A model generated the notes under the pieces. The model saw only the letters and a list, made by a program, of their open reading frames with translations, searched no databases and was not told the DNA's origin. This document shows positions 23,093 through 64,000 of a stretch of DNA of 64,000 nt, one piece after another; within the stretch, counting starts at the first letter, position 1, and each line of letters begins with the position of its first letter. A program made the translations under genes and the position numbers. The stretch is from Malacoraja senta (Eukaryota): assembly GCA_038087875.1 (NCBI GenBank), contig CM075995.1, positions 10,232,001 to 10,296,000 on the forward strand, given 5' to 3'.

Positions 23093-23141
<49 letters not shown>

Positions 23142-32100: not shown

Positions 32101-35100
32101 TTTGATTGTAATTACGTATAGTTTTTTCGCTGACTCCGTAGCATGCAACTGAAATGCTTTTCAGTGCACCTCGGAACACGTGCAAATAAACTAAACGAAC
32201 CAATGGATCACAACTGGCAGCGCGTTCCAGACACACTTGCTGCACACACCTCCTTTAAAGGTCCCTCCTCTCACCTTAAAGCTCTTCCCTCAAGGCGATA
32301 ATATTTCCACCATGGAAAGGATATATTCTGATTGCCTACCCAGTAGATGTCTCACATCACTTTCTAAACTTTAAACATGGTTCCCCTCAACCCCCGTAGT
32401 GGCAGAGAAAACAATGAAAGCTTGAAATAATTAGCATGAGAACATATGCTCGCGCTTATAAATGTTCAAGGTAACTGCTGCTTTGTTGAGCAAAGGAACA
32501 CATTGCCATCCTCAGTCTACCTGTGGATTTGGGGTCTGTCCCGTTTTTACTGCCTCCTCAAAACATAGTTATTTAGGGCTGTTGCCGGAAGAAGCCCTGT
32601 GACGCACGTACGTGCCATGAAACTTTGCCAGTCGTTCACCAGCACAGGCTCGCGATGAGCTCACAGGTTCACGGCGGGCGCTAGTCCGATCGATCGCAGT
32701 AACTGTCTCTCACACGGATATCCTCATCTCTTACAGTTGTGGAATGATTCATTCGGCTTCCGGGACGACATTTACCTTTAATTGTGGTGGACTTGTCGGT
32801 CGATATGTAAACATCATCATCCCAGGCCGTGGTAAAATATTGGCCCTGTGCGAGGTTGAGATCTTTGGTTCAGAACTCCCGTCCATACTTCGAAAAGGTA
32901 GGCTGAACACTCCCGCTGACGCACTGGTTGTACACTGCCCCACAGCTTAGTTGAGGGAGTTTCCCGCTGATAAGGCCTGAGGATAACTACCCTCCTGAAG
33001 CTCAATACCGTATTTCTCAACACCCTGCACTCCACATTATTAGGTTAATTACCAGTCTTGGACCCTCACATTGTGCATACATGATCCTTTGCATGAAATC
33101 CCCGGGGCGCTCGGTGCACACGGCCTCATCAATTCAGGCTGGATACCTCATGCTGATAGAAAACAGCCACGCACCAAGGAATTACACACCTATTTTAACC
33201 ACCTTGATGGTTGTCTCCCCGCTATCAGACTATTGAAAACTCCTCCTTTGCGTTGTAGTGCAATCCCAATATTTTAACCTGCCACAGTGCGGTTCGTGGA
33301 CACATTTTCTAAAGCCGTAAAGCTATAACTCTACAACACCACGTCCTGCAATCTACTGTTTTATTTTCACTTTAATTGTTGCTCTTGTGTGCGGATTCAT
33401 TGCACAGGTGTACAGTATGATTTGACTGTATAGTACAAACAAAAGTTTCTACTGAATCTCGCTTAACCTGACCATACTAAAGCAATACGAATACTGATGC
33501 AAACCTTGATAGAGCGCCCACATTCCTTGCGGTTCAATGAGGTGTTTCCCACCCAACAGAAAACGTAGCGTCCGGAGCACCGACGATCCAATCCAGCACG
33601 GATGAAGGGGCAGGTGCTGAGCGAGCCAATGACGGGAACAGCGACAGCAACTTCTGGCATGATTCATGCGCGCGCACCTGGAAATCCTACAACCCTTGGT
33701 GGAGAGTCGATCTAAAGGAAAGCTACAACGTGTCAGATGTAAGAATCACCAATAGAGCAGACTGCTGCTCGGACCAGCTCCAAGGAGCCGAGATCCGCAT
33801 CGGGGACTCGCTGGAGAACGATGGCAATTACAACAGACTGTAAGTATTCATAAGCGAACGCCGACTCTATTCACCTGCTGTGCCTTGTTCTGGAATTCTA
33901 CTGTTACTGTTGTTAACGTCAGTGGGAAAAAGAGAGCTGCTTCAGGTCGAAACCAACCTCACTGCAGAGAACGCTAAAACTGTGCACCACAGATGAGAGG
34001 GAACATGAAACAGAGCCGTAGATCAATTATCCAGTGGCATGAGATGCTGACGTACCTCCATAGCGGTGGGGTCAAATACTGAGATGGATACATTTGTAAT
34101 TTAAGTGAATTCATGTAATGTAATATTGAACAATCGGATTACAATGACAATGTTCAGGTAACCAATGCCTATGGGTGAGGGAGCAATCAGTGCAGACCCA
34201 GATAATACTACCAATGTATTTGGACTCTCCCGTTTCTTGCTATATGTTAAGGACATGAGCAAGTGGTGAGGATGTCGGAAGTAGCCGTGAGTGCAAACCT
34301 ACTCTCCCACGTGCACAACCCACCCAACATCCCGTGAACGTGTCACCAATTCAAGGTTTCAAGGTCAAGTCAGTTTATTGACACATGTACCAATTAAGGT
34401 AAAGTGAAATTTGAGTTTCCGTACAGCCATACTAAGTGAAAAGCAACAAGCCACACAACCACATAAACGTTAATATAAAATCCACCACAGTGGATTCCAC
34501 ATTCCTCACTGTGATGGAAGGCAATAAAGTTCAATATTATTCCTTTTTGTTCTCCCGCGGTCGGGGCAGCCAAACCATCCGCATTCGGGGCGATCAAAGC
34601 CCCCCCCCCGCAGCCGACGATCGAAGCCCCCGTCGGGGTAATCGAAACTCCCGCGTCTGGGCGGTTGAAACTCTCTCCGCGGCATGGAGCTCCCGAGTCG
34701 TCCTCTTCTTACCAGAGACCGCGGGCTTCACGATGTTAAAGTTCACAGGCCCCGCGGTTGGAGCTTCGATCCCCGGCAAAGGGATCGCAAGCTCCGCTAT
34801 TTTTAAGTCCGCAGTCTCCAGCGGCTTGGAGCGCCCGTCCGTCTCCAGGAAAGGCCGCCAACTCCAGGATGTTGGGCCGCAGTGCAGACGGAGATTCGAT
34901 ACGGAAAAAAAATCGATCTCCGTCATAGAAACATGGAAACATAGAAAATAGGTGCAGGAGGAGGCCATTCGGCCCTCCGAGCCACAACCGTCATTCATTG
35001 TGATCATGGCTGATCGTCCACAATCAATAACCCGTGCCTGCCTTCTCCCCATATACCTTGATTCCACTAGCCCCCTAGAGCTCTATCTAACTCTTTCTTG

Positions 35101-38100
35101 AATCCATCCAGTGATTTGGCCTCCACTGCCCTCTGTGGCAGAGAATTCCACAAATTCACAACTCTCTGGGTGAAAACGTTATTTCTCACTGCAGTCTTAA
35201 ATGGCTTCCCCTTTATTCTAAGACTGTGGCCCCTGGTTCTGGACTCGCCCAACATTGGGAACATTGGGAAGATTTTTCCTGCATCTAGCTTGTCCAGTCT
35301 TTTTTATAATTGTATATGTTTCTATAAGATCCCGCCTCATCCTTCTAAACTCCAGTGAATACAAGCCTAGTCTTTTCAATCTTTCCTCATATGTCAGTCA
35401 CGCCACCCCAGGGATCAATCTCGTGAACCTACGCTGCACTGCCTCAATCACAAGGCGGTGCTGGCTCGAAGGGCCGAATGGCCTACTCCTGCACCTATTC
35501 TCTATTGTCTATTGACCTTCCTCAAATTAGGAAATTATTGTCCTTCCTCAAAATTGTACACAATACTCCAGATGTGGTCTTACCAGAACCCTATACAACT
35601 GCAAAATAACGTCTCTACTCCTATACTCTACCCTCCCTTGTAAAACTGATCACCACCATGAAACCTACAACCTGCCCCCTCGACACTGTCCCCTCTGCCC
35701 TCCTAAAGGACGTCATTCCAACAGCTGGTCCCAGCATCCTCGCCATCTTCAACAGCTCTCAGGCCACTGGCACTGTACCTACCTGCTTCAAGCATGCGGT
35801 GGTCCAACCACTCCTGAAAAAACCTAACCTCGACCCCACCTTGCCAAGCAACTACAGACCCATTTCTAGACTGCCTTTCCTCTCAAAATCCCTTGAAAAG
35901 GTAATTTTGTCAAATTATACCTTACCTTCACCAAAACACTATCTTGGAAACTTTCCAATCAGGTTTCAGGGCTCACCATAGCACAGATTTTGCCTTGTTG
36001 AAGGTACACAATGACCTACTGCTCACCGTTGACTCCGACGACTGTGCAATTCTGCTCCTTCTTGACCTCAGCGCAGCATTTGATACTGTCGACCACACCA
36101 TCCTAATTGACCGTCTCCGGTATGGGGTTGGTATTGATGGCACTGCCCTGAGCTGGTTCATCTCCTACCTCAAAGGTAGGAGTTTCTCGACTAACATACG
36201 CAACTCTTTCTCCTCCCCAGCTAATCTCTGCTGTAGGGTTCCAGAAGGTTCCATCCTTGGCCCCATTCTCTTCTCCCTGTATATGCTACCCTTAGGCCAA
36301 GTCATTGAAAGGCACGGCATTTCCTTCCATTGCTACGCAGACGATACACAACTCTATCTCCCCCTGAAGCCCAAAAAACAATCAAATCTGTTTAACCTTA
36401 CCCACTGCCTCGAGGATATAAAGTGTTGGATGGCCCAGAACTTCCTCCAACTAAACGAGAGTAAGTCTGAGGTCATCCTTCTCGGCCCCTCGGACTCAAT
36501 CAAAATGTTAGCAGGCAGCGTTGGAAGCCTTACCCCACTACTCAAACCTCACGTCAAAAACCTTGGCGTGATAATTGAATCAGCACTGAAATTTGACAAA
36601 CAAGTCAAAGCCGTGGTAAAAGCTAGCTTCTTTCAGCTTCGGACAATAGCTAAAATAAAACAATTCCTCCAGTTTGATGACCTCGAAAAGATCATCCACA
36701 CATTCATCTCCTCCCGCCTAGATTACTGCAACTCCCTTTACACTGCGACTGGTCCAAAACGCCGCAGCGAGACTTCTGACGGGCACCCGAAAAAGGGACC
36801 ACATCACCCCGATCCTGGCCTCTCTCTACCGGCTCCCTGTGCGGTTCCGTATAAACTTCAAGATCCTCCTCCATGTCTACAAAGCCCTCAATGGGCTTGC
36901 CCCCACCTACATAAAAAGTCTTCTCACCCACCACTCCACATCCAGGCCCCTCAGATCGGCCGACTTTGGGTTGCTGAATATCCCACGGTCTAGGCAATCC
37001 CTAGACTGCGGAACAGCATCTCCTTTCCCATCAGAACTTAAGTCAAGACTAAAGACTTATCTATACACCAAGCCTTTTCTGACGTCCTCTGAGTGAGGGC
37101 TATATGTATATATGTATGTAGTTTGTTTTGTTTGTGCTATTCTTATAACAAATGTAAAGCACTTTAGCCAACGAGAGTTGATTTTTAAATGTGCTATATA
37201 AATAAATGTGACTTGACTTGACTTGACTATACTGAAATCCTCTTGTTATGAAGGCCAACATTCCATTATCTTTCTTAACTGCCTGCTGTACTTGCACGCC
37301 AACGTTCAGTGACCGGTGTACATGGGCACCCAGGTCTCGCTGTACATCTCCCTTACCTAACCTAACCCCATTGAGATAATATTCTGCCCCTTGTTTTTGC
37401 CACCAAAGTGGATATCCTCACATTTATGTATATTATACTGCATCAGCCACGCATCTGCCCATTCACGGAACCTGTCCAGGTCACCCTGCAACCGCCTCAC
37501 ATCCTCTTCACAGTTCACACTGCCACCCAGCTTTGTGTTATCCGCAAACTTGCTAGTGTTGCTCCTAATTCCCTCTTCCAATCATTAATATACATGGTAA
37601 ACAGTTGCGGCCCCAATACCGAGCCTTGCGGCACTCCACTCGCCACGGCCTGCCATTCTGAAAAGGATCCGTTCATTCCTACACTTTTCTACCTGCCTGC
37701 CAACCAATTTTCTATCCACGTCAACACCCTAACCCCAATACCATGTGCTCGAGGTAAGAGATTGAAAAAAACATTCCCCCAGCCCTCCACCCCCCCCCAC
37801 CCCGACATAAAACAAACCAATGAACACTATAACATGCTTATTAACACATACTAAAAATAACAAAAAAGAATAAAGGGCAGACAGACGGTTGGCGAGCATA
37901 GCACAAGACCCTGAAAGGTATAGAAGTGTGATAACGCACACCTCCATGTTCAGCGACAGTTTATTCCCAGCTGTTATCAGGTAACTGAACCATCCTGCCA
38001 ACAACTCAAGAGCAGTCTTGAACCACCCTCCGGAGACCCCTGGCCTGTCTTTGATCGGACTTTACTGGCTTTATCTTATTTTATACTTTATTCACGATAT

Positions 38101-41100
38101 TCCCTTTATCATGTATCTTCACAGAGTTAATGGCCCGATTGTAATTATGTCTTGTCTTTCCGCTGACCTTGCTCCACTTGCATTAAACTATACTCAGGCC
38201 GACGATAACGTTTGACACGTTGCCACTTCAGCAGTGATCAGGATACTGGCGTCTCACTTTTAAATCCTCATCTCTTTCAGCTGTGCAACAGTTGATTCAG
38301 CATCTGAGACGTTTACCTTCAACTGTGGTGGATTTGTTGGTCGATATGTAAACATCATCATACCAGGAGAGGCTAAAATCTTGACTTTGTGCGAGGTTGA
38401 GATCTTTGGAATAAAAGTACCACCCTCACCTGGAACAGGTAGGCTGAACTTCCCGCTGAAGCTCTGGTTTTCACAGCCTCACAGCTTGGTTGAGGATGTC
38501 TCCCGCTGATAATGTCTGAGAAAAACTACCTTCTTGATGCACCGCCGGCTTCCTCAACACCATGCAACGTTCCATTTTTGGTTAATCGCCAGCGTTGGAC
38601 CCTCGCATTGTCCAAACACGATCCTGCCAATCAATGAGATCCCTATGACATTCGATTCACACGCCCGCATCCATTCAGTCCGGAGACCTTATGCTGATAA
38701 AAAACAGCCACGCACCAACAAATTACACACCTATTGAAAGACGCTTGAAGAGCTTCACCCCGATCTCAGACTACTGAACGCCCCACCCCTGCCCCTTGAT
38801 TGGAGGCAAAGCCGATCTCCTAACCTGCCTTAGAGCGGTTCTTGTACTTATTTTCTAGGGCCGCAAAGCTACAACACTGTAACACCATATCTTGCAATCT
38901 AGAGTTTTTACATTTTTTTAATTTCACCTATTGTTTTGTCTGCGGCGTAATTGTACTGATGTACAGTATGATTTGATAACAAACAACGGTTTCCATTAAA
39001 CTCGCTGCACTTGACCTTACTAGAACAACACGAATATCAATGAAATACACTGCTGATCCGAACCTTGGCAGAAAGCGTCCGTCTCTCCCTTGAGGCTCAG
39101 TGAGTTGTTTCCCACCCAACAGAAAACGTGGCGTCCGGTGCACGACCGACCCAGTCCAGCACGGATGAAGAGGCAGTTGCTGAGCGAGCCAATGACGGGA
39201 ATAGCGACAGCGACTTCAGGCATGATTCATGCGCGCGCACCAGGAAATCCAAGAACCCTTGGTGGAGAGTCGATCTAATAGAGAGATACAACGTGACAGA
39301 TGTAAGAATCACCAACAGAGCAGACTGCTGCGCTGACCTGCTCCAAGGAGCCGAGATCCGCGTCGGGGAAACACTGGAAAAAGATAGCAATTCCAACAGA
39401 CTGTAAGTATTCAGAAGCAAACGCCGACTCTATTCTGCTGCAGTGCCTTGCTCTGCAAATTCGATTACTACTCATGCAGTGTTAACATAAGTGGAAAACA
39501 GAGAAAAGCTGCAGGTTAAGACTGTTCTCATTGCAGAATAAAATAAACTTATGCACCGCCGATCTAGATGCGAGAGAACATGGTACAGAACCGGAGACCA
39601 CTTATCGAGTGGCATGAGCTGCTGACGTGTCTCTATAGCGGTGGGGACAATAAAAGGAGATGAATAATTCTGTAATTTAAGTTAACGCATGTTATTTAAA
39701 GCTGAACAATCGGATTGCAGTGGGAATGTTCAGGTAACCAAGAGCACTGGTCATGACCGTGACAAGGCTACCTTTGTATCCGCACCCTGTCCTGTTCTTA
39801 GCTAACTGTTAGGGACAGAAGCAAGTGGGGAGGAAGCCACAAGAAGCTGATGAAGCCCCCTACATCACGTGAACTTGTCATCAGTTCACCAGCACAGGCA
39901 TACGTTAACGTTTTCCAAGCAGCCTCGTCCGCAGTTATCGACATAGTGGAGTCACACCATTAAATATCCATTTCTTTCAGCTGTGGAACCGTTGATTCAG
40001 TTTCTAGGACGACATTGATCTTCAATTGTGGTGGAATTGTGGGCCGATATGTGAGCATTGTCATACCAGGCCAGGCTAAAATATTGACCCTATGCGAGGT
40101 TGAGATCTTTGGATCTGAAGTCGCATCCTTACCTGGAACAGGTAGGCTGAACTTCCCGCTGATACTCTGGGTGTACACAGCCTCCCAGCTTAGTTCAGGG
40201 TGTCTCCCACCGATAAAGTCAGAGGATGACTACCACCCTGAAGCCCACCGCCGTCATTGGCAACACCCTGAATTTTAACGTTCTTAGTTTACTTGCTAGT
40301 CTTGGATCCTCGCGTAACGAAACATGATCCCGTCTATGAATGAAATCCTCGAGTGACTCACTGCGCACGCCCTCACCCATTCATTCCGGAGACCTTATGC
40401 GGATAAAAAATAGCCACGTATCACCGAACTACACATAATTCGAAACACCCTTGAAAAGCATATCCTCGTTAACAGACTACGGAATGGTCCTACCTCGAGT
40501 TGTAGTGCAATGCCGAACTTTTAACCTTCCCCAGTGCGGTTCTTGGACTTATTTTCTGCAGCAGCAAAGCAATAACACTGGAACACCATAGCATGCAATC
40601 TATGTATTGCTTTCCCACTACTTTGCCTGTTGCTCTTGTGTGCGGCTTCAATGCATTTATATACTGTATGACTTGACTGTATAGTACAAACAAGTGTTTC
40701 TACTGAATGTCGCTTGACTTGACCACACTATAGCAATACGAATATCAATTAAATACACTGCAGATCCAAACCTTGATAGAAGGCGTAAATCCGTCAGTAT
40801 TAAATTTCTCCGTTAAGGCTCAGTGAGTTGTTTCCCACCCAACAGAAAATGTGGCGTCCGGTGCACTACCGACCCAGTCCAGCACGGATGAAGAGGCAGT
40901 TGCTGAGCGAGCCAATGACGGGAATAGCGACAGCGACTTCAGACATGGTTCATGCGCGCGCACCAGGAAATCGAAGAACCCTTGGTGGAGAGTCGATCTA
41001 AAGGAAAGCTACAACGTGTCAGATGTAAGAATCACCAACAGAGCAGACTGCTGTTCGGCCCAGCTCCAAGGAGCCGAGATCCACATCGGGGACTCGCTGG

Positions 41101-44100
41101 AGAACGATGGCAATTCCAACAGACTGTAAGTGTTCAGAAGCAAACTCTATGCAGCTGCCGTGAATTGTTCTGCAACACTTTTACTGTTTCAGTGATAACA
41201 CGAGAGGGAAATAGAGAGAAGCTGCAGGTTAAGACTGACCTCACTGAGGAGAAACCTAAAGCTCTGCATCCATGATCCAGATGCGAGGGAAATTGAGACA
41301 AGAGCCGTAGACTACTTATCCAGCGGCACGTGCTGCTGAAATACCCCTATAGCGATGGATCCAATAAAAGGAGATGCATTTATATGTAGTTTCAGTTAAT
41401 GAATGTTCTGTAACGTTGAACAATTGGATTGCAGTGGCAATGTTCAGATAAATAATGCCTATGGGGGAGGTAATCGTGCCGACCCGCACAGGTCTACCAA
41501 TGTATCCAGATACTCTCCTCATCCCAGCTACCTCTTCGGGACAAGAGCAAGTGGGCAGGACACTGAAAGTAGCCGCGGGAGCCTCCTACATCCCATGAAC
41601 CTGTCAGCAGTTCACCAGCACAGGCAGACGATAAAGATTGACACGCTCCCCCATCCGCAGTGACCGAGATAGAGGAGTCTCACCTTAAAATCCTCATCTT
41701 TTTCAGCTGTGCAATCGTTGATTCAATTTCTTGGACGACATTTACCTTCAACTGCCGTGGATTTGTCGGTCGTTATGTGAACATCATCATCCCAGGGCAG
41801 GAAAAAATCTTGACCCTGTGCGAAGTTGAGATCTTAGGTTTAAAACTCCCGCACTTACATGGTGCAGGGAGGCTGAACTTCCTCCTGAGGCTCTGGTTGT
41901 ACACTTCCCCACAGCTAAGTTGACGGGGTCCCACGCTGATAACGTCTGGCGATAACTACCTTCTTGAGGCACAGTACCGTCTTTCGCAATGCTCTGCTAT
42001 TTGCTAATCTTAGGTTAATTGCCAGCCTTGGACCCTCGAATTGTCCAAACATAATCACGTCTATGAATGAAATCCCCAAGACAATCGGTGCACACGTCCT
42101 GATCCATTCAGTCTGCAGAACGTATGCAGATAGAAACCAGCCACGCACCAATAGACAATAGGTGCAGGAGTAGGCCGTTCGGCCCTTCGCGCCAGCACCG
42201 CCATTCAATCAGTATCCCTCTCCTGCTTTTTCCCCATATCCCCTGACTCCGCTATCTTTAGGAAACCTATCTCGCTCTCTCTTGAAAATATCCAGAGAAC
42301 TGGCCTCCACCGCCCTCTGACGCAGAGAATTCCACAGACTCACAACTCTCTGAGAAAAAAAGTTTTTCCTCGTCTCCGTTCTAAATGACCTACCTCTTAT
42401 TCTTAAACTGTGGCCCCTGGTTCTGGACTACCCCAACATGGGGAAAATGTTTCCTGCCTCTAGCGTGTCCAACCCCTTAATAATCTTATATGTTTCAAGA
42501 AGTTCCCGTCTCATCCTTCTAAAGTGCAGAGTATACAAGCCCAGCCGCTCAATTCTCTCAAAATATGATAGCCCCGCACATCCCGGGAATTAACCTTGTA
42601 AACCTACACTGCACTCCCTCAATAGCAAGAATGCCCTTCCTCAAATTAGGGGACCAAACCTGCACACAATACTCCAGGTGTGGTCTCACTATGCCCCTCG
42701 ACAACCGCAGAAGGACCTCATTGCTCCTATACGCAAATCATCTTGTTATGAAGGCCAACATGCCATTCGCTTTCTTCACTGCATGCTGTACCTGCATGCT
42801 TACTTTCATTGACTGATTAACAAGGACCCCGCAGATTCCGTTGTACCTGCCATTTTCCCAACTTGACATCATTTAGATATTAATCTGCCTTCCTGCTACT
42901 AAAGTGGATAACCTCACATGTATCCACATTAAACCGCATCTGCCATGCATCTGCCCACTCACCCAACCGGTCCAAGTCACCCTGCATTATTATAGCATCC
43001 TCCTCACAGTTCACACTGCTACCCAGCTTTGTGTCATCTGCAAATTTGGTAATGTTACTTTGAATCCCTTCATCTAAATCATTGATGTATATTGTAAATA
43101 GCTGCGGTCCCAGCACCGAGCCTTGCGGTGCCCCACTAGTCTGCCATTCTGAAACGGACCCGTTAATCCCTACTCTTTGTTTCCTGTCTGCCAACCAATT
43201 TTCTATCCATGTCAGCACTCTACCCTCAATACCATGTGCCCTAATTTTGCCCACTGATCTCCTATGTGGGACCTTATCAAATGCTTTCTGAAAGTCCAGG
43301 TACACTACATCCACTGGCTCTCCCTTGTACATTTCCTCGTTACATCCTCAAACAATTCCAGAAGATTAGTCAGGCATGATTTCCCCTTCGTAAATCTATG
43401 CGGACTCGGACCGATTCTGTTCGTCCTATCCAAATGTGCCGCTATTTCATCTTTTATAATTGACTCCAGCATCTTCCGCACCACCGATGTCAGGCTAACT
43501 GGTCTATAGTTCCTTGTTTTGTCTCTCCCGCCTTTCTTAAAAAGTGGGATAACATTAGCTACCCTCCAATCCACAGGAACTGATCCGAAATCTATAGAAC
43601 ATTGGAAAATTATCACCAATGCATCCACGATTTCTGGAGCCACTTCCTTAAGTACCCTGGGATGCGGACCATCAGGCGCTGGGGATTTATCAGCATTCAG
43701 TCCCATCAGTCTACCCAACACCTGCCTAATGTGGATTTCCTTCAGTTCCTCCGTCACCCCAGATCTTCTGGCCACTACTATATCAGGAAGATTGTTTATG
43801 TCCTCCTTGGTGATGACGGATCCAAAGTACCAGTTCAACTCATCTGCCATTTCCTTGTTCCCCGTAATAAATTCACCTTTATCAGTCTTCATGGGTCCAA
43901 CTTTGTTCTTAACTATTGTTTTCCTCTTCACATACCTATATAAGCTTTTACTATCCTCCTTTATATTATTGGCTAGCTTCCCTTCGTACTTCATCTTTTT
44001 TCCTCTTGCTTCCCGCTCATCTTTGCGACGTTGCACGTCTTCTCTTTTATTTTTATACTGTCCCTGACGTCCCTTGTCAGCCACGGTCGCCCCTTACTCC

Positions 44101-47100
44101 CCTTGGAATCTTTGTTCGTCTTTGGAATGAACTGAACCTGCACCTTCTGTATTATTCCCTGAAATATCTGCCATTGTTGTTCCACTGTCATCCAGTCAAC
44201 ATTGGCCAGCTCCTCCCTCATGACTCCATAGTCCCCTTTATTCAACTGTAAAACTGACACCTCCGATTTACCCTTCCCCGTCTCCAATTGTAGATTAAAC
44301 TTGACCATATTTTGGTCACTACCTCCTAATGGCCCCTTAACCTCAACTTCCTTTATCAAATCCGTTTCGTTACATTACACTAAATCCAGAATTGCCTGCT
44401 TCCTGTTAGGCTCCGAAACAAGCGGCTCTAAGAATCCATCACGGAGGCACTCCACAAACTCCCTTACTTGGGGTCCAGTACCAACCTGATTTTCCCAGAC
44501 TACCTGCATGATGAAATCTCCCGTAACAACCATAGCTTTACCGGTACTACATGCCAATTTTATCTCCCGATTCAACTTGCACCCTATATCCAGGATACTG
44601 TTTGGGGGCCTATAGATAAGTCCCATTAGGGTATTTTTACTCTTACAATTCCTTAGTTCTATCAATACTGACTCCACATCTCCTGTTTCAATGTCACCCC
44701 TTGCAAGGGACTGGATTTCATTCTTCACCAACAGAGCTACCCAACTCCCTCTGCCCACATGTCTGTCTTTTCGATAGGATGTATAACCTTGAATATTCAG
44801 TTTCCTGCTCTGGCCCTCTTGCAACCATGTAATTTCCACAACAGCATACTTGCCAATTTCTAACTGAGCCTCAAGCTCGGCGACTTTAATTCTTATACTT
44901 CACGCACTTTGACCTCGGTATTCACCTCCCCTCTGGCACCGGTCACAATTGGCCCTGACCTTACTCTCTTATCCCTTCTCGAACTTTCCTTCCCATTAAT
45001 TCGAGAGTCCTTTTTAACTTTTCCATACTCACTTCCCCTTCAACTCCAGCTTTATCCTCCCAATTTGTCAATCACCCCCCCCCCACTATTTAGTTTAAAC
45101 CCACACGTGTAGCCCTAGCATACCTGCCTCCCAGAACGTCGGTCCCCCTCCAGTTAAGGTGTAACCCTTTTGTACAGGTCACCCCTACCCCAGAAAAGAT
45201 CCCAGTGGTCTATAAATCTAAATCCTTGCTCCCTGCACCAGCCTCTCAGCCACTCATTCAGATCCCCTATATCCCTGTTCCTGTCCTCACTAGCTCGAGG
45301 TACTGGAAGCAACCCAGAGATAACCACCTTAGAAGTCCTACTTTTCAGTCTTCATCCAACTCCCTGAACGCACGTTGCAGAACCTCCTTCCTCTTCTTCC
45401 CGATGTCGTTTGTGCCCACGTGCACAACTATTGCCGGCTGCTCACCTTCCCTCTCGAGGATGTTCCGAATTCGGTTCGTGACATCTTGAACCCTGGCACC
45501 AGGGAGGCAACAGACCATCCTCGCGTCTCGCCTGCCCCCACAGAATCTCCAGCCAGCACCTCGGATAATGAAATCACCGATCACGATGGCTCTGGCCGAC
45601 GTTGTTTTCGCTGGTCGAGTCCCATCTCTAGGATTGGAGCCACCGACCTGTCCGTCGCTCGGACTGGAAGCGTCGTCTCCCCCGACAGCTCCCAAGAGGG
45701 CGCACCTGTTTTCATTAGGCACAGACACCTGGGTCTTCTGCACTACACGATGTCCACCCTTTCACTCAGTCACACACCTTGTTCTTCCCGTATCCTCGGC
45801 GTGACAACCTCACTGTAGGTCCTGTCCAGGAAACTCTCGTTTTCCCGGATGGCCCTGAGGTCATCAAGCTTCTTCTCCAGTGCCCCAACACTGTTCTTTA
45901 GGAGCTGAACCTAGACTCATTTGCCACAGTTGTAGCAGCCAGAGGCACCATCCGTGTCCCTGGGCTCCCACATCCTGCAAGCATCACACTGTCTCATCTT
46001 ACCCGTCATGTGTTCAGCTAGTCCCGCCCTCTCCAACGTAGTTTCCTCTCCTCCGCCTCCTCGCCGAAGAATCTCGAGCCAAAGACTCACACTTTACTCG
46101 CTTCTCTCACAAGGCCGCCCCCTCACTGCCGCTCCCCTAGAGCAGCCTTGCTTTTATTGGCTGATAAATTGCCTAATTTGCCAATTTACAAATTAAATTC
46201 CTCAGTTTTAAACTGTTTTCCCCTCTGGCTCACCTCCGACTCACTTTTCCCACGCGTTTTAGCCAATAAGTTCTTCTCACTGCTTCTCTTTGATTACTGT
46301 TTCTCCGAGATCCACGTAAGCACTGGGCTAACCCTGGCTTTTTGGCGCAGTTTTTAAACTATTTTTCCCCTCTGACTCACCTCTGACTCACCTTTCCCAC
46401 GAGTGTCAGCAAATAAGCTCTTCTCCTTGTTTCTCTTTGATTGCTGCTTTCCCAGATCCACGTAAGCACTGGGCGCCTAATGAAACACTTTTGAATAACG
46501 AATCCCCGCCATCAGACTACAGAACGGTTAATCCTTGAGTAGGAGAGCAATCCCGATTTTTAACCCTGCCTCAGCGCGGGTCTTGGACGATTACCATAAA
46601 GCTATAATACCGTAACACCATAATCACGTAATCTTTTGTTTTTTTACTGCCTCGCCTGATGTACAGTATGATTTATTGGATAATACGAACAAATGTTTTC
46701 ACTGCATCTCGCTTCACTTGAACATACTACAGCAATACGAATATCAATTAAATACAATGCTAATCCAAACTTGGAAAGAATGCCTACATCCGTCGTCATT
46801 AAATCTCTCCCTTGCGGCCCATTGAGTTGTTTCCCACCCAACAGAAAACGTGGCGTTCGGAGCACCCCCGACCCAGTCCAGCACGGATGAAGGGGCAGTT
46901 GCTGAGATAGCCAATGACGGTAACAGCGACAGCGACTTCAGGCATGGTTCATGCGCGCGCACCAGGAAATCCAAGAACCCTTGGTGGAGAGCCGATCTAA
47001 AGGAAATGTACAAAGTTTCATATGTCAAAATCACCAATAGAGCTGACTGCTGCTCGGACCAGCTCCAAGGAGCCGATATCCGCATCGGGGACTCGCTGGA

Positions 47101-50100
47101 AAATAATGGCAATTCCAACAGAAGTATTTAGAGGCAAACGCCGACTCTATTCAGCTGTGGTGTCTTGTTCTGCAAGTTCCACTGTTATTGTTGCAGTGAT
47201 ACAATGTATGAGAAACTGAGAACAGCTGCAGGTTAAGACGGATCTCACTGTAGAAAGAAATAAACCTGATCACCGCCGATCCAGATGCGAGAGAAAATGA
47301 TACATAGGTACATAGATACACAGAAAATAGGTGCAGGAGTAGGCCATTCGGCCCTTCCAGCCTGCACCGTCATTCAATGTGATCATGGCTGATCATCCAA
47401 CTCAGTATCCCGTACCTGCCTTCTCTCCATACCCCCTGATCCCCTTAGCCACAAGGGCCACATCTAACTCCCTCTTAAATATAGCAAATATAGATACAGA
47501 GCCATAGACCACTTACCCAGTGGCATGAGCTGCCGACGTACCTCTATAGCGGTTGGTTCAATTAAAGGATAAGAATATATCTGTAATTTAATTGAATACA
47601 TGTTATGTCACATTAAAGCATCGGATTGCAGGGGCGATGTTCAGGTAACCAATGCCAATGGGTGAGGGTTCAAGGCGTCACTATCCATGTACTTGGACCC
47701 CCTCCTGTTCCTAGCTATTTGTTAGGGACAGGGGCAAATGGGGAGGATGTCGGCGGCATCATCGAGAGCAACCTCCCACCTCCCTTCCCAACCCAACATC
47801 CCTTGAACGTGTCACCAGTTGACGAGCACGCACAGTGAAAACGAACACCTCCAGATTCAGTCTTCCCTGCCTTTATCAGGTAACGGAATCGTCCTACCAA
47901 CAACTAGAAAGCAACCCTGAGCTACTAATTACCTCACTGGAAACCATAGGACTACCTTTGATCGGACTTTACTGGCTCTCTTACACTTACTTACTTACAA
48001 ATGTTATTCACGATATTCCCGTCATCATGGACACTGTGGGTGGCCCGATTGTAATAATGTATTGTCTTTCCGCTGACCGGTTAGCACGCAACAAAAAGCG
48101 TTTCACTGTACCGTGGTACACGTGACATAAACCAGACTCAGGCTCACGATGACGTTTGACACGTTGCCTCGTCCGCCGTCATCGAGCTAGTGGAGTGTCA
48201 CAAGTTCATATTCGTCTCTTTCAGCTGTGCAACAGTGGAATCGGCTTCTAGGACGTTGTCCATCAACTGTAGTGGATTTGTCGGTCGATATGTGAACATC
48301 ATCAATCCAGGCCTGGAGAAAACCTTGACCCTGTGCGAGGTTGAGATCTTTGGTTCAAAGCTTCCGTCTTTACCTGGAACAGGTAGGCTGAATTGCCCGC
48401 TAAGGCTCTGGTTCCACACAGCATCGCATTTCACTTCAGCCAGTTTCCCGCTGATAAAGTCTGAGGTAAATGACCTTCCTGAAGCACAATGCCGTCTTTC
48501 TCAATGCCCTGAACTTTACCAGTCTTAGTTTACTCGCCGATCTTGGACTCTTGCATTGTAGAAACATGATCCAGTCTGTGAATGAAATCCATGAGACAGG
48601 GTGCACATGCTCGTATCCATTCATTCCGGAGACTTTATGCTGATAAAGAACTACCACGCACTAACTAATTACACGCCGATTGTAACAGGCTTGAATATTA
48701 TCTCACTGCTGTCAGATTACTGAACGGTCCTCCCTTGAGTTCTAGTCCAATACCGACCTGCCTTAGTGCTGTTCTTAGACATATTTTCTATAGCCATAAA
48801 GCTGTAACACATTAACACCATTTTGTTCCATCTATTGTTTTCTCTACTTCACCTGTTGCTCGTGTGCGGCATCATTGCAAAAATGTACAGTATGACTTGA
48901 TTGTATAGTATAACTAATGATTTTCAGCATCTTGCTTTATCTAAACAATACGAATATCAACGAAATACACTGCTGATCCAAACCTTTTTAGAAGGCATAC
49001 ATCGATAAGATCATCAGTTCATACGTGAGAGGAGCAGAATTAGGCCAACCAAGTCTACTCCTCCAATCAATCATGGCTCATCTATTTCCCCATCCTAACC
49101 CCATTCTCCTGTCTTCTCCAGGGACACAAGACGATACATAGAAACATAGAAACATAGAAAATAGGTGCAGCAGTAGGCCATTAGGCCCTTCGAGCCTACA
49201 CCGCCATTCAATATGATCATGGCTGATAATCCAACTCAGTATACTGTACCTGCCTTCTCTCAATACCCCCTGACCCCTCTAGCCACAAGGGTTACATCTA
49301 ACTCCCTCTTAAATATAGCCAACGAACTGGCCTCAACTACTTTCTGTGGCAGAGATTTCCACAGATTCACCACTCTCTGTGTGAATTTTTTTTTCTCATC
49401 ACGGTCCTAAAAGACTTCCCCCTTATCCTTAAACTGTGACCCCTTGTTCTGGACTTCCCCAACATTGGGAACAATCTTCCTGCATCTAGCCTGGCCATCC
49501 CCTTAAGAATTTTGTAAGTTTCTATAAGATCCCCCCTCAATCTTCTAAATTCTAGCGAGTACAAGCCGAGTCTATCCAGTCTTTCTTCATATGAAAGGCC
49601 TGACATCCCAGGAATCAGTCTGGTGAACCTTCTCTGTACTCCCTCTATGGCAAGAATGTCTTTCCTCAGATTAGGAGACCAAAACTGTACGCAATACTCC
49701 AGGTGTGGTCTCATCCAAGCCCTGGACAACTGCAGTAGAAGCTCCCTGCTACAATACTCAGATCATTTTGCTATGAATGCTCACATATACAGACAATAGT
49801 CTACTTACCTGTTCTTGCCACCAAAGTGGATAACCTCACATTTATCCACATTATACTGCATCTGCCATGCATTTGCCCACTCACCCAACCTATCCAAGTC
49901 ACCTTGCAGCCTCCTATCATCCTCCTCACAGCTAACACTGCCCCCCAGCTTCGTGTCATCCGCAAACTTGGAGATGTTGCACTCAATTCCCTCGTCTAAA
50001 TCATTAATACATATTGTAAATAGCTGGGGTCCCAACACTGAGCCTTGCGGTACCCCACTAGTCACTGCCTGCCATTCTGAAAAGGACCCGTTTACTCCTA

Positions 50101-53100
50101 CTCTTTGCTTCCTGTCTGCCAGCCAGTTCTCTATCCACATCAATACTGAACCCCCAATGCCGTGTACTTTATGTTTGTATACTAATCTCTTATGTGGGAC
50201 CTTGTCGAAAGACTTATGCAAGTCCAGATACAACACATCCACTGGTTTTCCCTTATCCACTCTACTACTTACATCCTCGAAAAATTCTATAAGATTCGTT
50301 AGACATGATTTACCTTTCATAAATCCATGCTCACTTTGTCCAATGATTTCACCACTTTCTAAATGTGCTGCTATCCCATCTTTAATAACTGACCCTAGCA
50401 TTTCCCCCACTACCGATGCTAGTCTAACTGGTCCGTATTTCCCTCACTTTTCTCTCTCCCTCACTTTTTCAAAAGTGGGCTTACATTAGCTACACTCCAA
50501 TCCTCAGGAGCTACTCCAGAATGTAAAGAGTTTTGAAAAATTATCACTAATGCATTCACTATTTCTGGGGCTACTTCCTTAAGCATTCTGGGATGCAGGC
50601 TATCTGGTCCTGGGGATTTATCGGCCTTTAATCCATTCAATTTACCTAAAACAACTTCGCGACTAACCTGGATTTCACTCAGTTCCTTCATCTCATTTGA
50701 CCCCCGGTCCCCAGCTATTTCCGGCAGATTATTTATGTCATCCTCATTGAAGACAGAACCAACGTAGTTATTCAATTGGTCTGCTATGTCCTTGTTCCCC
50801 ATGATCATGACTCACCTGTTTCTGACAGCAAGGGACCTGTCGGAAAGAAGCGGATGAATATTCTGCAGCATGACTTTACAGAGCTCGGAAAAAATGCTGA
50901 AAAGCAGGACCTCCAGGGTTGTTATCTCCGGTTTGCTTCCAGTTCCTCGTGCTGGCGAGGGCAGGAACAGGGAGATACGGCACCTGAATGTGTGGCTGAG
51001 GAACTGGTGCACGGGGCAGGGATTTAGATTCTTAGATCACTGGGATCTGTTTTGGAGTAAAAGGGAACTGTACAAACGGGACGGATTGCATCTTAACAGG
51101 TTGGGGACCAGCATTCTGGCAGGCAGGTTTGCCACTGCTACACGGGTGGTATTAAACTGAATAAGGGGGGTGGGGTGTCGAATGGGATAGTTGAGGATGG
51201 AGTTAAATGGAAAGGGTTTCTTAAATGTGTGAGCGTAGAGACAGAGGGGTGTAAAATGAGGGTAGAATCAATAGGTAGCAAGGTGAAAAGTACAAGTGGC
51301 AGGCAGACAAATCCAGGGCAAAAATCAAAAAGGGCCAGTTTTCAACATAATTGTATAAGGGGTAAGAGTGTTGTAAAAACAAGCCTAAAGGCTTTGTGTC
51401 TCAATGCAAGGAGCATTCGTAATAAGGTGGATGAGTTGAATTTGCAGATAGCTATTAATGACTATGATATAGTTGGGATCTCGGAGACATGGCTCCAGGG
51501 TAACCAAGGCAGGGAGCTGAACATCCAGGGATATTCAATATTCAGGAGGGATAGACAGAAAGGGAAAGGAGGTGGGGTAGCGTTGATGGTTAGAGAGCAG
51601 ATTAACGCAATAGAAAGGAAGGACATTAGCTTGGAGGATGTGGAATCGATATGGGTAGAGCTGCGAAACACTAAGGGGCAGAAAACGCTAGTAGGAGTTG
51701 TGTACAGGCCACCTAACAGTAGTAGTGGAGTTGGGGATGGCATCAAACAGGAAATTAGAAATGCGTGCAACAAAGGTAAAACAGTTATAATGGGTGACTT
51801 CAATCTACATATAGATTGGGTGAATCAAATTGGCAAGGGTGCTGAGGAAGAGGATTTCTTGGAATGTATGCGGGATAGTTTTCTAAATCAACATGTAGAG
51901 GAACCAACGAGAGAGCAAGCTATTCTAGATTAGGTATTGAGTAATGAGGGAGGGTTAGTTAGCAGTCTTGTTGTCCGTGGCCCCTTGGGCAAGAGTGGCC
52001 ATAATATGGTTGAGTTCTTCATTAGGATGGAGAGTGACATTGTTAATTCAGAAACAAGGGTCCTGAACTTAAAGAAAGGTAACTTTGAGGGTATGAGAAG
52101 TGAATTGGCCAAGATAGTCTGGCAATTGATTCTTAATGGATTGACGGTAGATATGCAATGGAAGGCATTTAAAGACTGCATGGATGAACTACAACAATTG
52201 TTCATCCCAGTTTGGTAAAAAATAGATCAGGGAAGGTAGTGCATCCACGGATAACAAGGGAAATCAGGGATAGTATCAAAACAAAAGATGAAGCGTACAA
52301 ATTAGCCAGAAAAAGCAGCCTACCAGAGGACTGGGAGAAATTGAGAGTCCAGCAGAGGAGAACAAAGGGCTTAATTAGGAAAGGGAAAATAGATTATGAA
52401 AGAAAACTGACAGGAAAAATAAAAACTGACTGCAAAAGCTTTTATAGATATGTGAAGAGAAAAAGGTTAGTTAAAACAAATGTAGGTCCCTTGCAGTCAT
52501 AAACAGGCGAATTGATCATGGGGAACAAGGACATGGCAGACCAATTGAATAACTACTTTGGTTCTGTCTTCTCTAAGGAAGACATAAATAATCTGCCAGA
52601 AATAGCAGGGGACCGGGGGTCAAATGAGATGGAGGAACTGAGTGAAATCCAGGTTAGCCGGGAAGTGGTGTTAGGTAAATTGAATGGATTAAAGGCCGAT
52701 AAACCCCAGGGCCAGACAGGCTGCATCCTAGAGTACTTAACGAAGTAGCCCCAGAAATAGTGGATGCATTAGTGATAATTTTTCAAAACTCTTAGATTCT
52801 GGAGTAGTTTCTGAGGATTGGAGGGTAGCTAATGTAACCCCACTTTTTCAAAAGGGAGGGAGAGAGAAAACGGGGAATTACAGACCAGTTAGTCTAACGT
52901 CGGTAGTGGGGAAACTGCTAGAATCAGTTATTAAAGATGGGATAGCAGCACATTTGGAAAGTGGTGAAATCATTGGACAAAGTCAGCATGGATTTATGAA
53001 AGGTAAATCATGTCTGACGAATCTGATAGAATTTTTCTAGGATGTAACTAGTAGAGTGGATAAGGGAGAACCAGTGGATGTTATATCTGGACTTTCAGAA

Positions 53101-56100
53101 AACTTTCGACAAGGTCCCACATAAGAGATTAGTATACAAACTTAAAGCACAAGGTATTGGGGGTTCAGTATTGATGTGGATAGAGAACTGGCTGGCAGAC
53201 AGGAAGAAAAGAGTAGGAGTAAACGGGTCCTTTACACAATGGCAGGCAGTGACTAGTGGGGTACCGCAAGGCTCAGTGCTGGGACCCCAGCTATTTACGA
53301 TATATATTAATGATCTGGACGAGGGAATTGAATGCAACATCTCCAGGTTTGCGGATGACACGAAGCTGGGGGCCAGGGTTAGCTGTGAGGAGGATGCTCG
53401 GAGGCTGCAAGGTGACTTGGGTAGGCTGGGTGAGTGGGCAAATGCATGGCAGAGGCAGTATAATGTGGATAAATGTGAGGTTATCCACTTTGGTGGCAAA
53501 AACAGGAAAGTAGACTATTATCTGAATGGTGGCCGATTAGGAAAAGGGGAGATGCAACGAGATCTGGGTGTCATGGTACACCAGTCATTAAAAGTAGGCA
53601 TGCAGGTGCAGCAGGCAGTGAAGAAGGCAAATGGTATGTTAGCATTCATAGCAAAAGGATTTGAGTATAGGAGCAGGGAGGTTCTACTGCAGGTGTACAG
53701 GGTCGTGGCGAGACCACACCTGGAGTATTGCGTACAGTTTTGGTCTCCTAATCTGAGGAAAGACATTCTTGCCATAGAGGGAGTACAGAGAAGGTTCACC
53801 AGACTGATTCCTGAGATGTCAGGACTTTCATACGAAGAAAGACTGGATAGACTCGGTTTATACTCGCTAGAATTTAGAAGATTGAGGGGGGATCTTATAT
53901 AAACGTACAAAATTCTTAAGGGGTTGGACAGGCTAGATGCAGGAAGATTGTTCCCGATGTTGGGGAATTCCAGAACAAGGGGGTCACAGTCGAAGGCTAA
54001 GGGGGAAATCTTTTAGGACCGAGATGAGGAAAACATCTTTCACACAGAGAGTGGTGAATCTCTGGAATTCTCTGACACAGAAGGTAGTTGAGGCCAGTTC
54101 ATTGGCTATATTTAAGAGAGAGTTAGATGTGGCCCTTGTGGCTAAAGGCATCAGGGGGTATGGAGAGAAAGCAGGTACAGGATACTGAGTTGGATAATCA
54201 GCCATGATCATATTGAATGGCGGTGCAGGCTCGGCCGAATGGCCTACTCCTGCACCTATTTTCTATGTTTCTATGTTTCTATGACCTACATTTGTTTTAA
54301 CTAATCTTTTTCTCTTCACATGTTTATAAAAGCTTTTGCAGTCAGTTTTTATGTTCCCTGCCAGTTTTCTTTCATAATCTGTTTTCCCTTTCCTAATTAA
54401 GCCCTTTCTCCTCCTCAGCAGGACTGCATTTCTCCCAGTCCTCTGGTAGGCTGCTTTTTCTGGCAAATTTGTATGCTTCATCTTTTGTTTTGATACTATC
54501 CCTGATTTCCCATGTTATCCACGGATGCACTACCTTCCCTGATTTATTCTTTTGCTAAACTGGGATTACCAATTGTTGTAGTTCATCCATGCGGTCTTTA
54601 AATGCCTTCCATTGCATATCCACCGTCAACCCTTTAAGAATCAATTGCCAGTCTATCTTGGCCAATTCACGTCTCATACCCTCAAAGTTACCTTTCTTTA
54701 AGTTCAAAACCCTTGTTTCTGAATTAACTATGTCACTCTCCATCCTAATGAAGAACTCAACCATATTATAGTCACGCTTGCCCAAGGGTCCACGCACAAC
54801 AAGAGTTCTAACTAACTCTTCCTCATTACTCAATATCCAATCTAGAATAGCCTGCTCTCTCGTTGGTTCCTCTACATGTTGGTTTAGAAAACTATCCCGC
54901 CTACATTCCAAGAAATCCTCTATCTCAGCACCCCTGCCAATTTGATTCACCCAATCTATATGTAGATTGAAGTCACCCATTATAACTGTTTTCCTTTGTT
55001 GCACGCATTTCTAATTTCCTGTTTGATGCCACCCCCAACTCCATTACTACTGTTAAGTGGCCTGTACACAACTCCCACTAGTGTTTTCTGCCCCTTAGTG
55101 TTCCGCAGCTCTACCCATATCGATTCCACATCCTCCAAGCTAATATCTTTCCTTTCTTTTGCGTTAATCTCTTCTCTGACCAGCAACGCTACCCTACCTC
55201 CTTTTTCTTTCTGTCTATCCCTCCTGAATATTGAATATCCCTGGATGTTCAGCTCCCAGCCTTGATCAACCTGGAGCCATGGCTCCGTAATCCCAACTAT
55301 ATCATATTCATTAATAACTATCTGCACATTCAACTCATCCACCTTATTACGAATGCTCCTTGTATTGAGACACAAAGCCTTCAGGCTTGTTTTTACAACA
55401 ATTATGTTGAATAGTCGCCCTTTTTGGTTTTTGCCCTAGATTTGTCTGCTTGCCACTTTTACTTTTCAGCTTGCTACCTATTGCTTCTACCCTCATTTTA
55501 CACCCCTCTGTCTCTCTGCTCATGCTCCCATCCCCCTGCCACATTAGGTTAAATCCTCCCCTACAGCACTAGCAAACACTCCCCCAAGGACATTGGTTCC
55601 ACTCCAGCCCACGCGCAGAACGTCCTGTTTGTCCTGGTCCCACCTCCTCCAGAACTGGTTCCAATGCCCTCGAAATTTGAATCCCTCCGCCTTGCCCCAT
55701 TTTTCAATTCACGTATTCTTCTGAAATATCCTCCTGTTTCTACTGTGACCAGCACGTGGCACTGGTAGTAATCCAGAGATTATTACCTTTGAGGTCCTGC
55801 TTTTAAGTTTATCTACTAGCTTCCTAAATTCACCTTGTAGGACCTCATCCCGTTTTTTACCTATATCGTTGGTGCCAATGTGCACCACGACAGCTGGCTG
55901 TTCACCCTCCCCCACCATAATGTTCTGCAGCCGCTCAGTGACATCCCTGACCCTTGCACCAGGGAGGCAACATACCATCATGGAGTCTCGTTTGCGCCCG
56001 CCGAAACGCCTATCCATTCCCCTTACAATTGAATCCCCTATTACTATAGCCCTTCCACTCTTTTTCCTCCCCTCCTGTGCCGCAGAGCCACTCACGGTGC

Positions 56101-59100
56101 CATGAACTTGGCTGCTGCTGCCTTCCCCTGATGAGCCATCTCCCCCAACAGTATCGAAAATTGTATATCTGTTTAGGAAGGAGCTGACCGCAAGGGGCTC
56201 CTGCTTGCTAGTGGCCACCCGTTCCCTTTCAGTCCGCTTAACTTTTACCTGCGGTGTAGCCAACTCACTGTACGTGCTATTCACGACTTTCGCAGCATCG
56301 TGGATGCTCCAGTATGAACCCAACCGCAGCTCCAACCGTTCAATGCGGTCTGCCAGGAGCTGCAGCTGGACACACGTCCTGCACACGTTGTCACCAGGGA
56401 CACCGACAATATCCCTGATCTCCCACATGTTGCAGGATGAGCAATCCACGGGGCCGATCTCAACTGACATGGCTTACCCCCAAATTAAATCAACTCACTC
56501 CCACTATAAAAATCTTAATCCTTTAAACTGTACCTTTACTAAAAAGCACTATACCCTTAACTCACTGTACCCTTAACTCATTGAACCCTTAACTCACTGT
56601 ACCCTTAACTCACTGAACCCTTAACTCACTGAACCCTTAAATCACTGTACCCTTAACTCACTGAACCCTTAACTCACCGAACCCTTAACTCACTGAACCC
56701 TTAACTCACTGAACCCTTAACTCACTGTACCCTTAACTCACTGTACCCTTAACTCACTGAACCCTTAACTCACTGAACCCTTAACTCACTGTACCCTTAA
56801 CTCACTGTACCCTTAACCAGAAAGCAGAAATACAAACCTGGGGTTACTCCCAATAAGCTGCTTCCTCTAGTCCGCTTCCACCAATCAGCGGCTTCCTCCA
56901 GACCACTTCTTTTGAAGAGTGATGGAACGTGGCAGAGTGGACAACGCTGCACCAGCCACTCCAATCGCTACTGGGCCTCTGCGGAACAAAGCCCCGCGCT
57001 CCGTTTTTAAACTCACCGCCTGGACGCTGCACCAGCCGCTCCAACCGCTCCTGTACTGTTACTCTCACGATACGATAGCACTTTACGATACGATATCACT
57101 TTATAAACGATACCACACCACCCAACAAAATCGTTGACTACACCTTTGTATTCAGCTTCCCTCCCTTCACTGATGCAACACCTAATTACAGAGCCAACTG
57201 AAATCTTCTGCAGGTGGCAGGAGTCCGAGTTGTAGCTGAAATCCGAGGTGTACATGGTGAACAGGAAGGGAGAGAGGAACCTCCCCTCTGGGGGCCCTGT
57301 GTTGCTCACAACCATTTCCGAGACACAGTTCTGTAGCCGGACATACGGTGGTCGACCAGTCAGGTAGTTGGTATTCCCGGACACCAATGGAGCATCCAGC
57401 TGCATCTTCGTCAGTTTGCTTCGTAGGCGGATGGTGTTAAAAACACCGGAGAAGTAAAGAAACACGACTTTCACTGCTTCCCAGCTTATCCTGGTGAGCA
57501 TAGGAACGATGGAGGAGGAGGAGGATGGCTTCCTCAATCCCCACCTTTGTTAGGTAAACGTACTGCAGGGGATCCAGGTAGGGTTTAACCAGGGATCGCA
57601 GGTGAGTAAGCACCAGCCTTTCCAGATGCTTCGTGATGTGTGAGTTCAGCGCCAACGGTCTGTAGTCATTGGAATAGCTGGGACGCGCCATCGTTGCTAC
57701 AGGAACGAGACATTACGTCTTCCACATCACAGGAACCATCTCCCGGCTCAGGATCACGTTGAATCTATGCTATAGTACTCCGCACAACTGCCTGATACAT
57801 GCCTGGAGTATGCTAGGGACCCATAGTTTTGCATGTTCATCACTTGCTCAACCTTGATGGTCAGGAGCGACAAAAAAAGTGGATCAGAGGGTTGAGGGGG
57901 AGTGTTTGTCAGGGACCAGGTGGGCAGAGGCCCCTCCATGAAATCTGTTAAAGCGCAGGTTTAGCTCGATTTAGCTGATGGCTTTTACTCCCTAGGCCAC
58001 TGGTCATCCTGTAGCCTGGAATGCTTTTCATTCCGTACGGTGAATTCTCTTCAGCCGTACTAATCAAGAATCTATCTATCTATGTCTTAAAAATATATCC
58101 ATTGATTTGGCCTCAACGGCCTTATGGGGCAATCAATTCCACAGATTCAACACCCTCTTACTGAACAAATTACTCCTCATCTCCTTCCAAAAGGAATGTT
58201 CTTTAATTCTGCGGCTATGACCACTGATCCCAGCTCCTTCCACAAATGAAAGAACCCTGCCCGCATCCAGTCTATCCAGGTCCCCTTTCATTTTTCTAAA
58301 TTCCAGCGAATAGAGACCTGTGCCATCATACGTTCATCATAGATTAACCCACTCATTTCTGGGATCATTCTCGTAAACCTCCTCAGGACCCTCTATCATT
58401 AGTGTCCCTCTGGAACACATCCTTCATTAGAAATGGGGCCTGAAATTGCTCTCAATACTCCAACTGCGGTCCGAATCAGCGCCTGATAGAGCCACAGCAT
58501 TACGTCCTCATTTTGTATTGTAGTCCTCTTGAAATAAATGCTTGCATTGCCTTTGCCTTTCTTAGTCCCGATTGGACATGGCAATAAACATTCCACTTTC
58601 GATTTTTTGGATTCTCCCCATTTAGAAAATAGTCTACGCCTTTATTCCTGCCACCAAAATGCATGACTCCACATTTTGCTGCATTGTATATCATCTGCCA
58701 CTTCTCTACCCACTCTCCTCACCTGACCAAGTCCTTCTGCGGACTTTCTACTTTTTCTATACTACCCACCCCTCCACTTTTTTCGTATTATCTGCAAACT
58801 GGCTGCAAAGCCTTCAATCCCCTCATCCCATCATCACCATAAACGTGAAGAATATCGGCGCCAGCAACGAACCCCCTGTGGAACTCCCCCAGTCACCGGC
58901 AGTCAACCCTTTATTGCCATTCTTTGCCTTCTGCCATTCAGCCAAACTGCTATCTATGCTAGTATCCCCCCTTTTGTACCATCGGCTCTCATCTTCCTTA
59001 GCAGCCTCACGTGCGGCTGTTTATCAAAGGCTTTCTAAAAACCTAGGTAAACAACATACACTGACTCTCCTTTGTCCTGCTATTTACATCCTCAAAGAAT

Positions 59101-63844: not shown

Positions 63845-64000
63845 GTAGGCGGAACTTTCCGCTGAGGCTCTGGTTGTGCACAGCCCCCTAGCATAGTTGG
63901 GAAGATTCTCCCACTGATAAGGTATGCGAAATAAAGATCTTCATGAGGCCGTGTACCGTCATTCTGCCCTTCTCCACTTTTGGACTCTCGCATTGTCCAA

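Follow-up and report, generated by a model that had tools for sequence, protein, structure and literature searches.

Two adjacent splice-donor losses in a long F-type lectin-domain exon array of the skate Malacoraja senta and the predicted joint skipping of the two exons

The stretch of Malacoraja senta DNA analysed in this study covers 64,000 nucleotides (assembly GCA_038087875.1, contig CM075995.1, positions 10,232,001 to 10,296,000) and is called the window below. As a genome-wide search in Malacoraja senta revealed, the window forms the front part of a long cluster of F-type-lectin-domain exons, in which each domain is encoded by an A exon and a B exon. The array contained 55 A and 56 B exons in strict alternation over 269 gap-free kb (354 kb of joined sequence), and 19 of them (B0, A1-A9, and B1-B9) were in the window. 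The A exons were mostly 280 nt long and ran from phase 1 to phase 2, and the B exons were mostly 161 nt long and ran from phase 2 to phase 1. None of the 111 exons contained an in-frame stop, no N letter occurred across the 269-kb span, and a stop replacing the donor was found in B55 only, with an AATAAA about 150 nt behind it (G000:C19 10,519,589). In compiling the exon set, 13 tblastn matches were first set aside; 2 of these were short genuine A exons and were restored, while 11 fragments were excluded. Two neighbouring exons, B6 and A7, have lost their splice donors, and the array and the features around the two lesions are as follows.

G000:C19:10,250,058-10,519,440 (window 18058 onward), forward strand: array of 111 exons; the window part, B0 to B9, is 18058..64000.
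40846..41125, forward strand: exon A6, the N-terminal part (93 codons) of an F-type lectin domain, from phase 1 to phase 2, GT donor intact.
41707..41867, forward strand: exon B6, C-terminal half-domain, frame open, AG acceptor intact, donor lost.
41868..41869, forward strand: GG replacing the GT donor of B6.
41921..41923, forward strand: stop TGA, reached if B6 continues into the intron.
42151..46473, reverse strand: CR1-type long interspersed nuclear element (LINE), near full-length but broken, 4,323 bp, at a single insertion point in the B6-A7 intron.
46845..47122, forward strand: exon A7, frame open, acceptor intact, donor gone by a 5-nt deletion after 47122.
47129..47131, forward strand: stop TAG, reached if A7 continues.
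48225..48382, forward strand: exon B7, with an acceptor in phase 2, predicted to be joined to A6.

Only 2 of the 110 internal donors of the array lacked GT, and these were the adjacent donors of B6 and A7. In the window, the other 17 of the 19 exons have GT, as had been claimed in an earlier note written from the letters of the window; the B1 donor is the less usual GTGGGA, and the length of B1 agrees with that in Amblyraja model P0006. The chance that two random lesions adjoin is 1.8% for the 110 array donors and 10.5% for the 19 exons of the window, and downstream of the lesions all 96 other donors were intact. The GG at the B6 donor, where the paralogues have GT, was confirmed as the earlier note had read it. 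For A7, the note described a lost CTGTA across the donor. The loss of 5 nt between 47122 and 47123 relative to the paralogues is real, but the lost letters may have begun with TT and not CT, because the Amblyraja and Leucoraja orthologues carry Phe at the junction.

Two contigs of the public run X2, one over 41332-42151 (depth 29.4) and one over 47047-47335 (depth 27.4), show no other letters and no gaps; contig 18 crosses the B6 donor with 0 differences, and contig 21 crosses the A7 deletion with 0 gaps. This agreement excludes a consensus slip, which the earlier note had wished to see checked in raw reads, yet it adds no second individual, because X2 may be the source of the assembly. Across the B6 donor, run X1 gave one contig (depth 2.2), in which 28 letters are gaps and 1 letter, at an unstated place, differs. 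In X3 and X11 no listed piece crossed either donor, the X3 pieces being short and X11 giving no cover of the exons.

The two lesions differ in effect according to whether they are bypassed singly or together. Skipping one exon only (A6 to A7, or B6 to B7) shifts the frame and leads to a stop within 30 codons, while A6 to B7 keeps the frame, as the phases had been read before. Skipping both B6 and A7 left a single frame that encodes 8,740 aa (about 950 kDa), amounting to 54 whole domains plus a half-domain, and stops only in B55; the predicted skip intron is 41126-48224 (7,099 nt). The hybrid of A6 and B7 is predicted to be a complete, ordinary domain, because A6 and A7 are 86% identical, all six cysteines are retained, and in the striped bass gene the domain is divided close to a variable turn at the base of the barrel (PMC5712786). 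Near the normal ends of B6 and A7 only weak in-phase GT sites were found, and better-scoring in-phase sites would shorten the half-domain; the donor score was a crude U1-pairing count and not a trained model.

Comparison with other skates showed that models of Amblyraja radiata, Leucoraja erinacea, and Rhinoraja longicauda have the orthologous array with its order unchanged, at 75-96% identity per exon. The closest proteins were fucolectin-like models of Rhinoraja, Amblyraja, and Leucoraja (76-85% identity), and the exon order A1-A4, B4-B7, A8-A9, and B9-B12 was preserved in the Amblyraja models. The gene predictions Amblyraja P0007 and Leucoraja P0057 contain positional orthologues of B6 (91-92%) and join B6, A7, and B7 at normal lengths, so on these models the donor losses are specific to the Malacoraja senta lineage. 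Between B3 and B7, only one A exon is present in Rhinoraja model P0010, and the domain number may thus vary in this region.

The earlier note regarded B6 and A7 as pseudo-exons, but the substitution data gave no sign of coding decay. The mean ratio of nonsynonymous to synonymous rates (dN/dS) was 0.43 for A7 and 0.44 for B6, values bracketed by those of the other exons (0.34-0.64 for A and 0.26-0.64 for B); none of the 18 A and 17 B exons tested reached a mean of 0.65. Private nonsynonymous and synonymous changes numbered 3:3 in A7 and 4:1 in B6, against 72:38 and 48:26 elsewhere (p 0.66 each). Against the Amblyraja orthologues, A7 has 14 residue differences and A4-A6 have 13-16. Relaxed selection on B6 and A7 was not detected, with low power if the lesions are recent, and the two exons look recently silenced and not decayed. 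The sequon that the earlier note listed as lost is indeed absent from A7 but gives no evidence of decay, for the exon before B7 likewise reads KVS in Amblyraja P0007 and Rhinoraja P0010, with NVS only in Leucoraja P0057; the sequon change therefore predates the donor loss or arose separately. A search for A7-like short proteins gave no candidate.

Dead remnants of A or B exons were found in 10 other introns, with the intact exons still alternating, and these represent about six distinct events after duplicates were merged. Domain units were, as these remnants suggest, repeatedly lost or half-copied, losses and partial duplications being indistinguishable in the ten introns. Two remnants (G000:C19:10,461,766-10,461,974 and 10,479,701-10,479,909) are fused from an A start and a B end, with the acceptor intact and the donor dead; by their make-up, the fused A/B remnants are a whole domain deleted from inside. 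A dead B copy with an internal deletion, truncated by a CR1 end, stands ahead of an intact B exon at G000:C19:10,453,365-10,453,575 and 10,471,283-10,471,494.

It is fairly probable, judging from the genomic sequence, that B6 and A7 are skipped together and that A6 is joined to B7, which would give a protein of at least 8,740 aa with one domain fewer than in related skates. Paired in-frame skipping had been the proposal of the earlier note; the 96 further intact donors and the 8,740-aa frame now speak for it, while the arguments from the sequon, from decay, and from the CR1 insertion fail. Under general vertebrate exon definition, an exon without a donor would not be defined across long introns and would be dropped. 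After the first loss, taken as that of B6, A6 would reach either A7, with a frameshift and nonsense-mediated decay, or B7, in frame and surviving. Some product would thus persist at the one-lesion stage, and the loss of the A7 donor would then merely end the wasteful path. B6 and A7 would be the youngest case of domain pruning, with older stages in the ten other introns.

Several points weigh against this joint skipping. The A6-B7 junction is a prediction from the genomic sequence. Among RNA data sets, none was listed for 38200-42100, a result that has no bearing on expression. B6 and A7 show no excess of amino-acid change, hence no independent sign of leaving the protein. Contigs drop alleles, so the X2 match shows neither homozygosity nor fixation. 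An acceptor without a donor was also seen in two excluded duplicates (after A42 and A46) and in the two fused remnants (after B44 and B48), and these four pieces show that lone dead exons exist in the array. A credible A0 or leader exon was not found in the 98 kb upstream of the array, and long introns, such as B7-A8 with 12.7 kb, could conceal transcription starts. An assembly gap (16340-16539) lies 1.5 kb upstream of B0, right behind a 2.5-kb minisatellite (13400-15940), and the missing A0 and leader exon may lie inside it. We infer that the whole array is one transcription unit.

The alternative that survives best, although it is unlikely, is that B6 serves as a last exon, with read-through to 41921-41923 and polyadenylation in the antisense CR1, giving a short lectin alone or beside the skipped form. 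The earlier note had raised such an ending; the stop is present and a second isoform is possible, but the short form is unlikely as the sole product. Read-through would give 958 aa counted from B0, ending 18 residues past the complete domain 6, and the B6 acceptor is intact. An AATAAA with a T-rich stretch behind it is found at 43866, and A7 would be useless in the short and long forms alike. However, no AATAAA or ATTAAA occurs within 1 kb after the stop, the first being at 42928, and the hexamer by itself says little, since 25 of the 55 B exons are followed by AATAAA at a distance of up to 700 nt. With B6 as the sole end, the 96 intact downstream donors would be unexplained and a later lesion would have struck A7 with a chance of 1 in 97.

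A null or freshly dead haplotype is more doubtful. In this reading, A6 would splice to A7 after the loss of B6, the message would be degraded, and the two lesions would adjoin by chance. The undecayed state of B6 and A7 implies recent lesions, the contigs allow either zygosity, and stops interrupt other F-type lectin loci of the genome, all of which would suit a null allele. It would nevertheless require two independent lesions on adjacent, mutually rescuing exons while the other 109 exons are open (p 0.018).

There is little to recommend the view that the array comprises several genes, with the B6 and A7 lesions marking a new split and the downstream part having its own promoter. Public skate models do cut the array into pieces of 197-1,478 aa, many of them short leaderless genes, and several introns exceed 5 kb. 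However, a hydrophobic leader is absent from all 13 skate models, whose best 11-residue hydropathy is 0.38-1.87 (2.51-2.86 in four shark proteins), these models break at exon edges or at an internal Met, and B55 alone carries a stop in the place of its donor. The leaderless skate models fit, from their sequences, with fragments of one long gene.

Retention of both B6 and A7 through cryptic or non-canonical donors is slightly less credible again. B6 offers in-phase GT sites that would give exon lengths of 62, 131, and 155, its mutant site keeps the other U1-pairing bases, and in-phase GT or GC sites in A7 would give lengths of 97, 139, and 163. Use of the A7 sites would, however, remove the Arg-x-Asp-Cys-Cys half of the domain, and two exons would need rescue simultaneously. 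An assembly or consensus error, to which the repetitive array with its near-identical units A13-A17 and A34-A36 could be prone, can practically be dismissed, since the X2 contigs (depth 27-29) are identical at both sites and the span is free of N.

The CR1 insertion had been given as full-length and as lying between the two lesions. A near full-length insertion does lie there, but it is broken, and CR1-like DNA of at least 1 kb occurs in 21 of 110 introns, of which only the B6-A7 intron is flanked by full-length exons without GT. With such DNA in 21 introns, the argument for the insertion as the cause of the donor losses does not hold. The intron flanks of the insertion align end to end with paralogous introns. 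Relative to another copy in the window, the insertion extends over residues 13-323 of the 323 in ORF1 and over almost the whole ORF2, and it is broken into five open fragments of at least 90 aa. RVT_1 was detected in it, and the GDSL, endonuclease, and reverse transcriptase families were detected in a sister copy, which the insertion covers end to end. A short 3' repeat tail is present at 42151, and the 5' end (46206-46474) consists of about 146 bp duplicated in tandem. At the two ends of the insertion, a target-site duplication of at least 6 nt was looked for and not found. Its clade, which we take to be CR1, was named from its features and not from a repeat library.

A6 and A7 scored above the Pfam cut-offs of PF22633 and PF00754 (F5/8-type C families), and the Amblyraja orthologue P0007 matched the structures 3cqo (E 3e-77) and 1k12. 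Judged by sequence, the array retains the F-type fold. The array has two exons per domain with flanking introns of phase 1, and an exon pair between phase 1 introns is how the F-type domain is described in one review (PMC12221842). The cysteines for three disulfides are present, with Cys 36, 68, and 69 (including the vicinal pair) in A6 and three Cys each in B6 and B7, and by analogy the pairing is presumably that of the eel lectin AAA. None of the 55 A exons (one could not be parsed) has the fucose triad His52/Arg79/Arg86, and 36 of them read Arg/Arg/Gln, while the same pattern found 29 triads in P0094 and 10 of 11 in P0002. The cation motif h-h-Asp-Gly-x was AIDG in 6, ANDG in 43, AKDG in 3, and missing in 3 of the 55 A exons. 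Because no A exon keeps the His/Arg/Arg triad, the array is, by its residues, F-type by descent and not a canonical fucolectin. A marsupial protein model with 18 F-type domains (P0096) lacks the triad as well; of its 9 parsed domains, 8 have Gln/Arg/Gln or Arg/Arg/Gln.

The array resembles the tandem F-type lectins of striped bass (MsaFBP32/MsFTL1, PDB 3cqo) and eel (AAA, PDB 1k12) in domain sequence and in the two-exon phase 1 layout. Fish and amphibian F-type lectins have one to five domains and this layout according to two reviews (PMC5712786, PMC12221842), whereas the skate array has about 55 and lacks the triad. In oyster bindin, a central intron likewise splits the F-type domains, and hybrid domains, a variable repeat number, and a retroelement in the gene are described (PMC5712786); there the hybrids arise by recombination in the central intron and the one to five repeats by alternative splicing. 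Unlike bindin, the skate hybrid would be fixed by two donor losses in a far longer array. In a shark skin proteomics paper, one F-type lectin protein fragment is reported from catshark mucus (PMC10707392).

Homogenised tandem arrays of 29, 20, 18, and 11 domains were predicted in Ascaphus (LOC142488078), Scomber (LOC133983374), Notamacropus (P0096), and Pristiophorus (P0002), respectively. These predicted giants are about half the size of the skate array or less, and His/Arg/Arg is kept in 29 of 29 domains in Ascaphus and 10 of 11 in Pristiophorus. Among 15 database matches of 2,936-5,000 aa, the longer arrays had 29, 20, 18, and 18 domains, and the best match in the representative library had 37 partial matched stretches in 2,865 aa. 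The giant-protein search ended at 5,000 aa, and longer models could be missed. With about 55 predicted domains, the skate array is the longest among those found, the next having 29 (models up to 5,000 aa). No report of a skate giant F-type lectin or of the B6/A7 pair was found in the literature searched; the survey of Bishnoi et al., outside the search, may list longer arrays.

The B6/A7 case would represent a repeat protein losing a domain through two small splice-site changes rather than by deletion, and it is relevant to how a gene can pass through a frameshifting stage with a single lesion. Taken by itself, the exon pair neatly illustrates a known principle; more weight attaches to the predicted giant gene of F-type fold, which is mis-annotated, conserved in skates, and split by public annotation into short leaderless pieces. 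It has about ten times the domain number given in the two family reviews (PMC5712786, PMC12221842) and an altered sugar site. As a tentative and rather doubtful extension, the gene could produce a chain of lectin fold, about 1 MDa in mass and composed of some 55 F-type domains, whose Arg/Arg/Gln site has moved off fucose to another ligand and whose length is tuned by splice-site death in frame-preserving pairs. The dead B6 donor would then also make an alternative last exon, so that proteins of about 7 and about 55 domains would come from one gene.

Elsewhere in the array, an extra Pro/Thr/Gly-rich linker of 75-91 codons, built of short internal repeats, was found in 9 B exons (B13-B17, B40, B41, B45, and B51; L002-L005, L015-L018, and L020), which are 386-434 nt long. 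The linker is possibly an O-glycosylated spacer. The predicted protein has 81 sequons and no C-terminal hydrophobic anchor. The last four domains, A52-B55 (G000:C19:10,498,039-10,519,440), are divergent; A53 (238 nt) and A55 (256 nt) are both shortened, and it is A52, A53, and A55 from which the cation motif is missing. Inserted in the B8-A9 intron are 39 nt (62329-62367) that match part of A8 (61261-61299) exactly.

Other F-type loci in the genome were found on C19 near 9.59 and 10.7 Mb and on C4015, C4537, C4391, and C854; these are separate from the array and 44-62% identical. C4015 and C4537 carry near-identical copies of the same F-type exons, and some of the other F-type loci (L031-L036, L038-L039, L042-L047, and L049-L051) contain stops.

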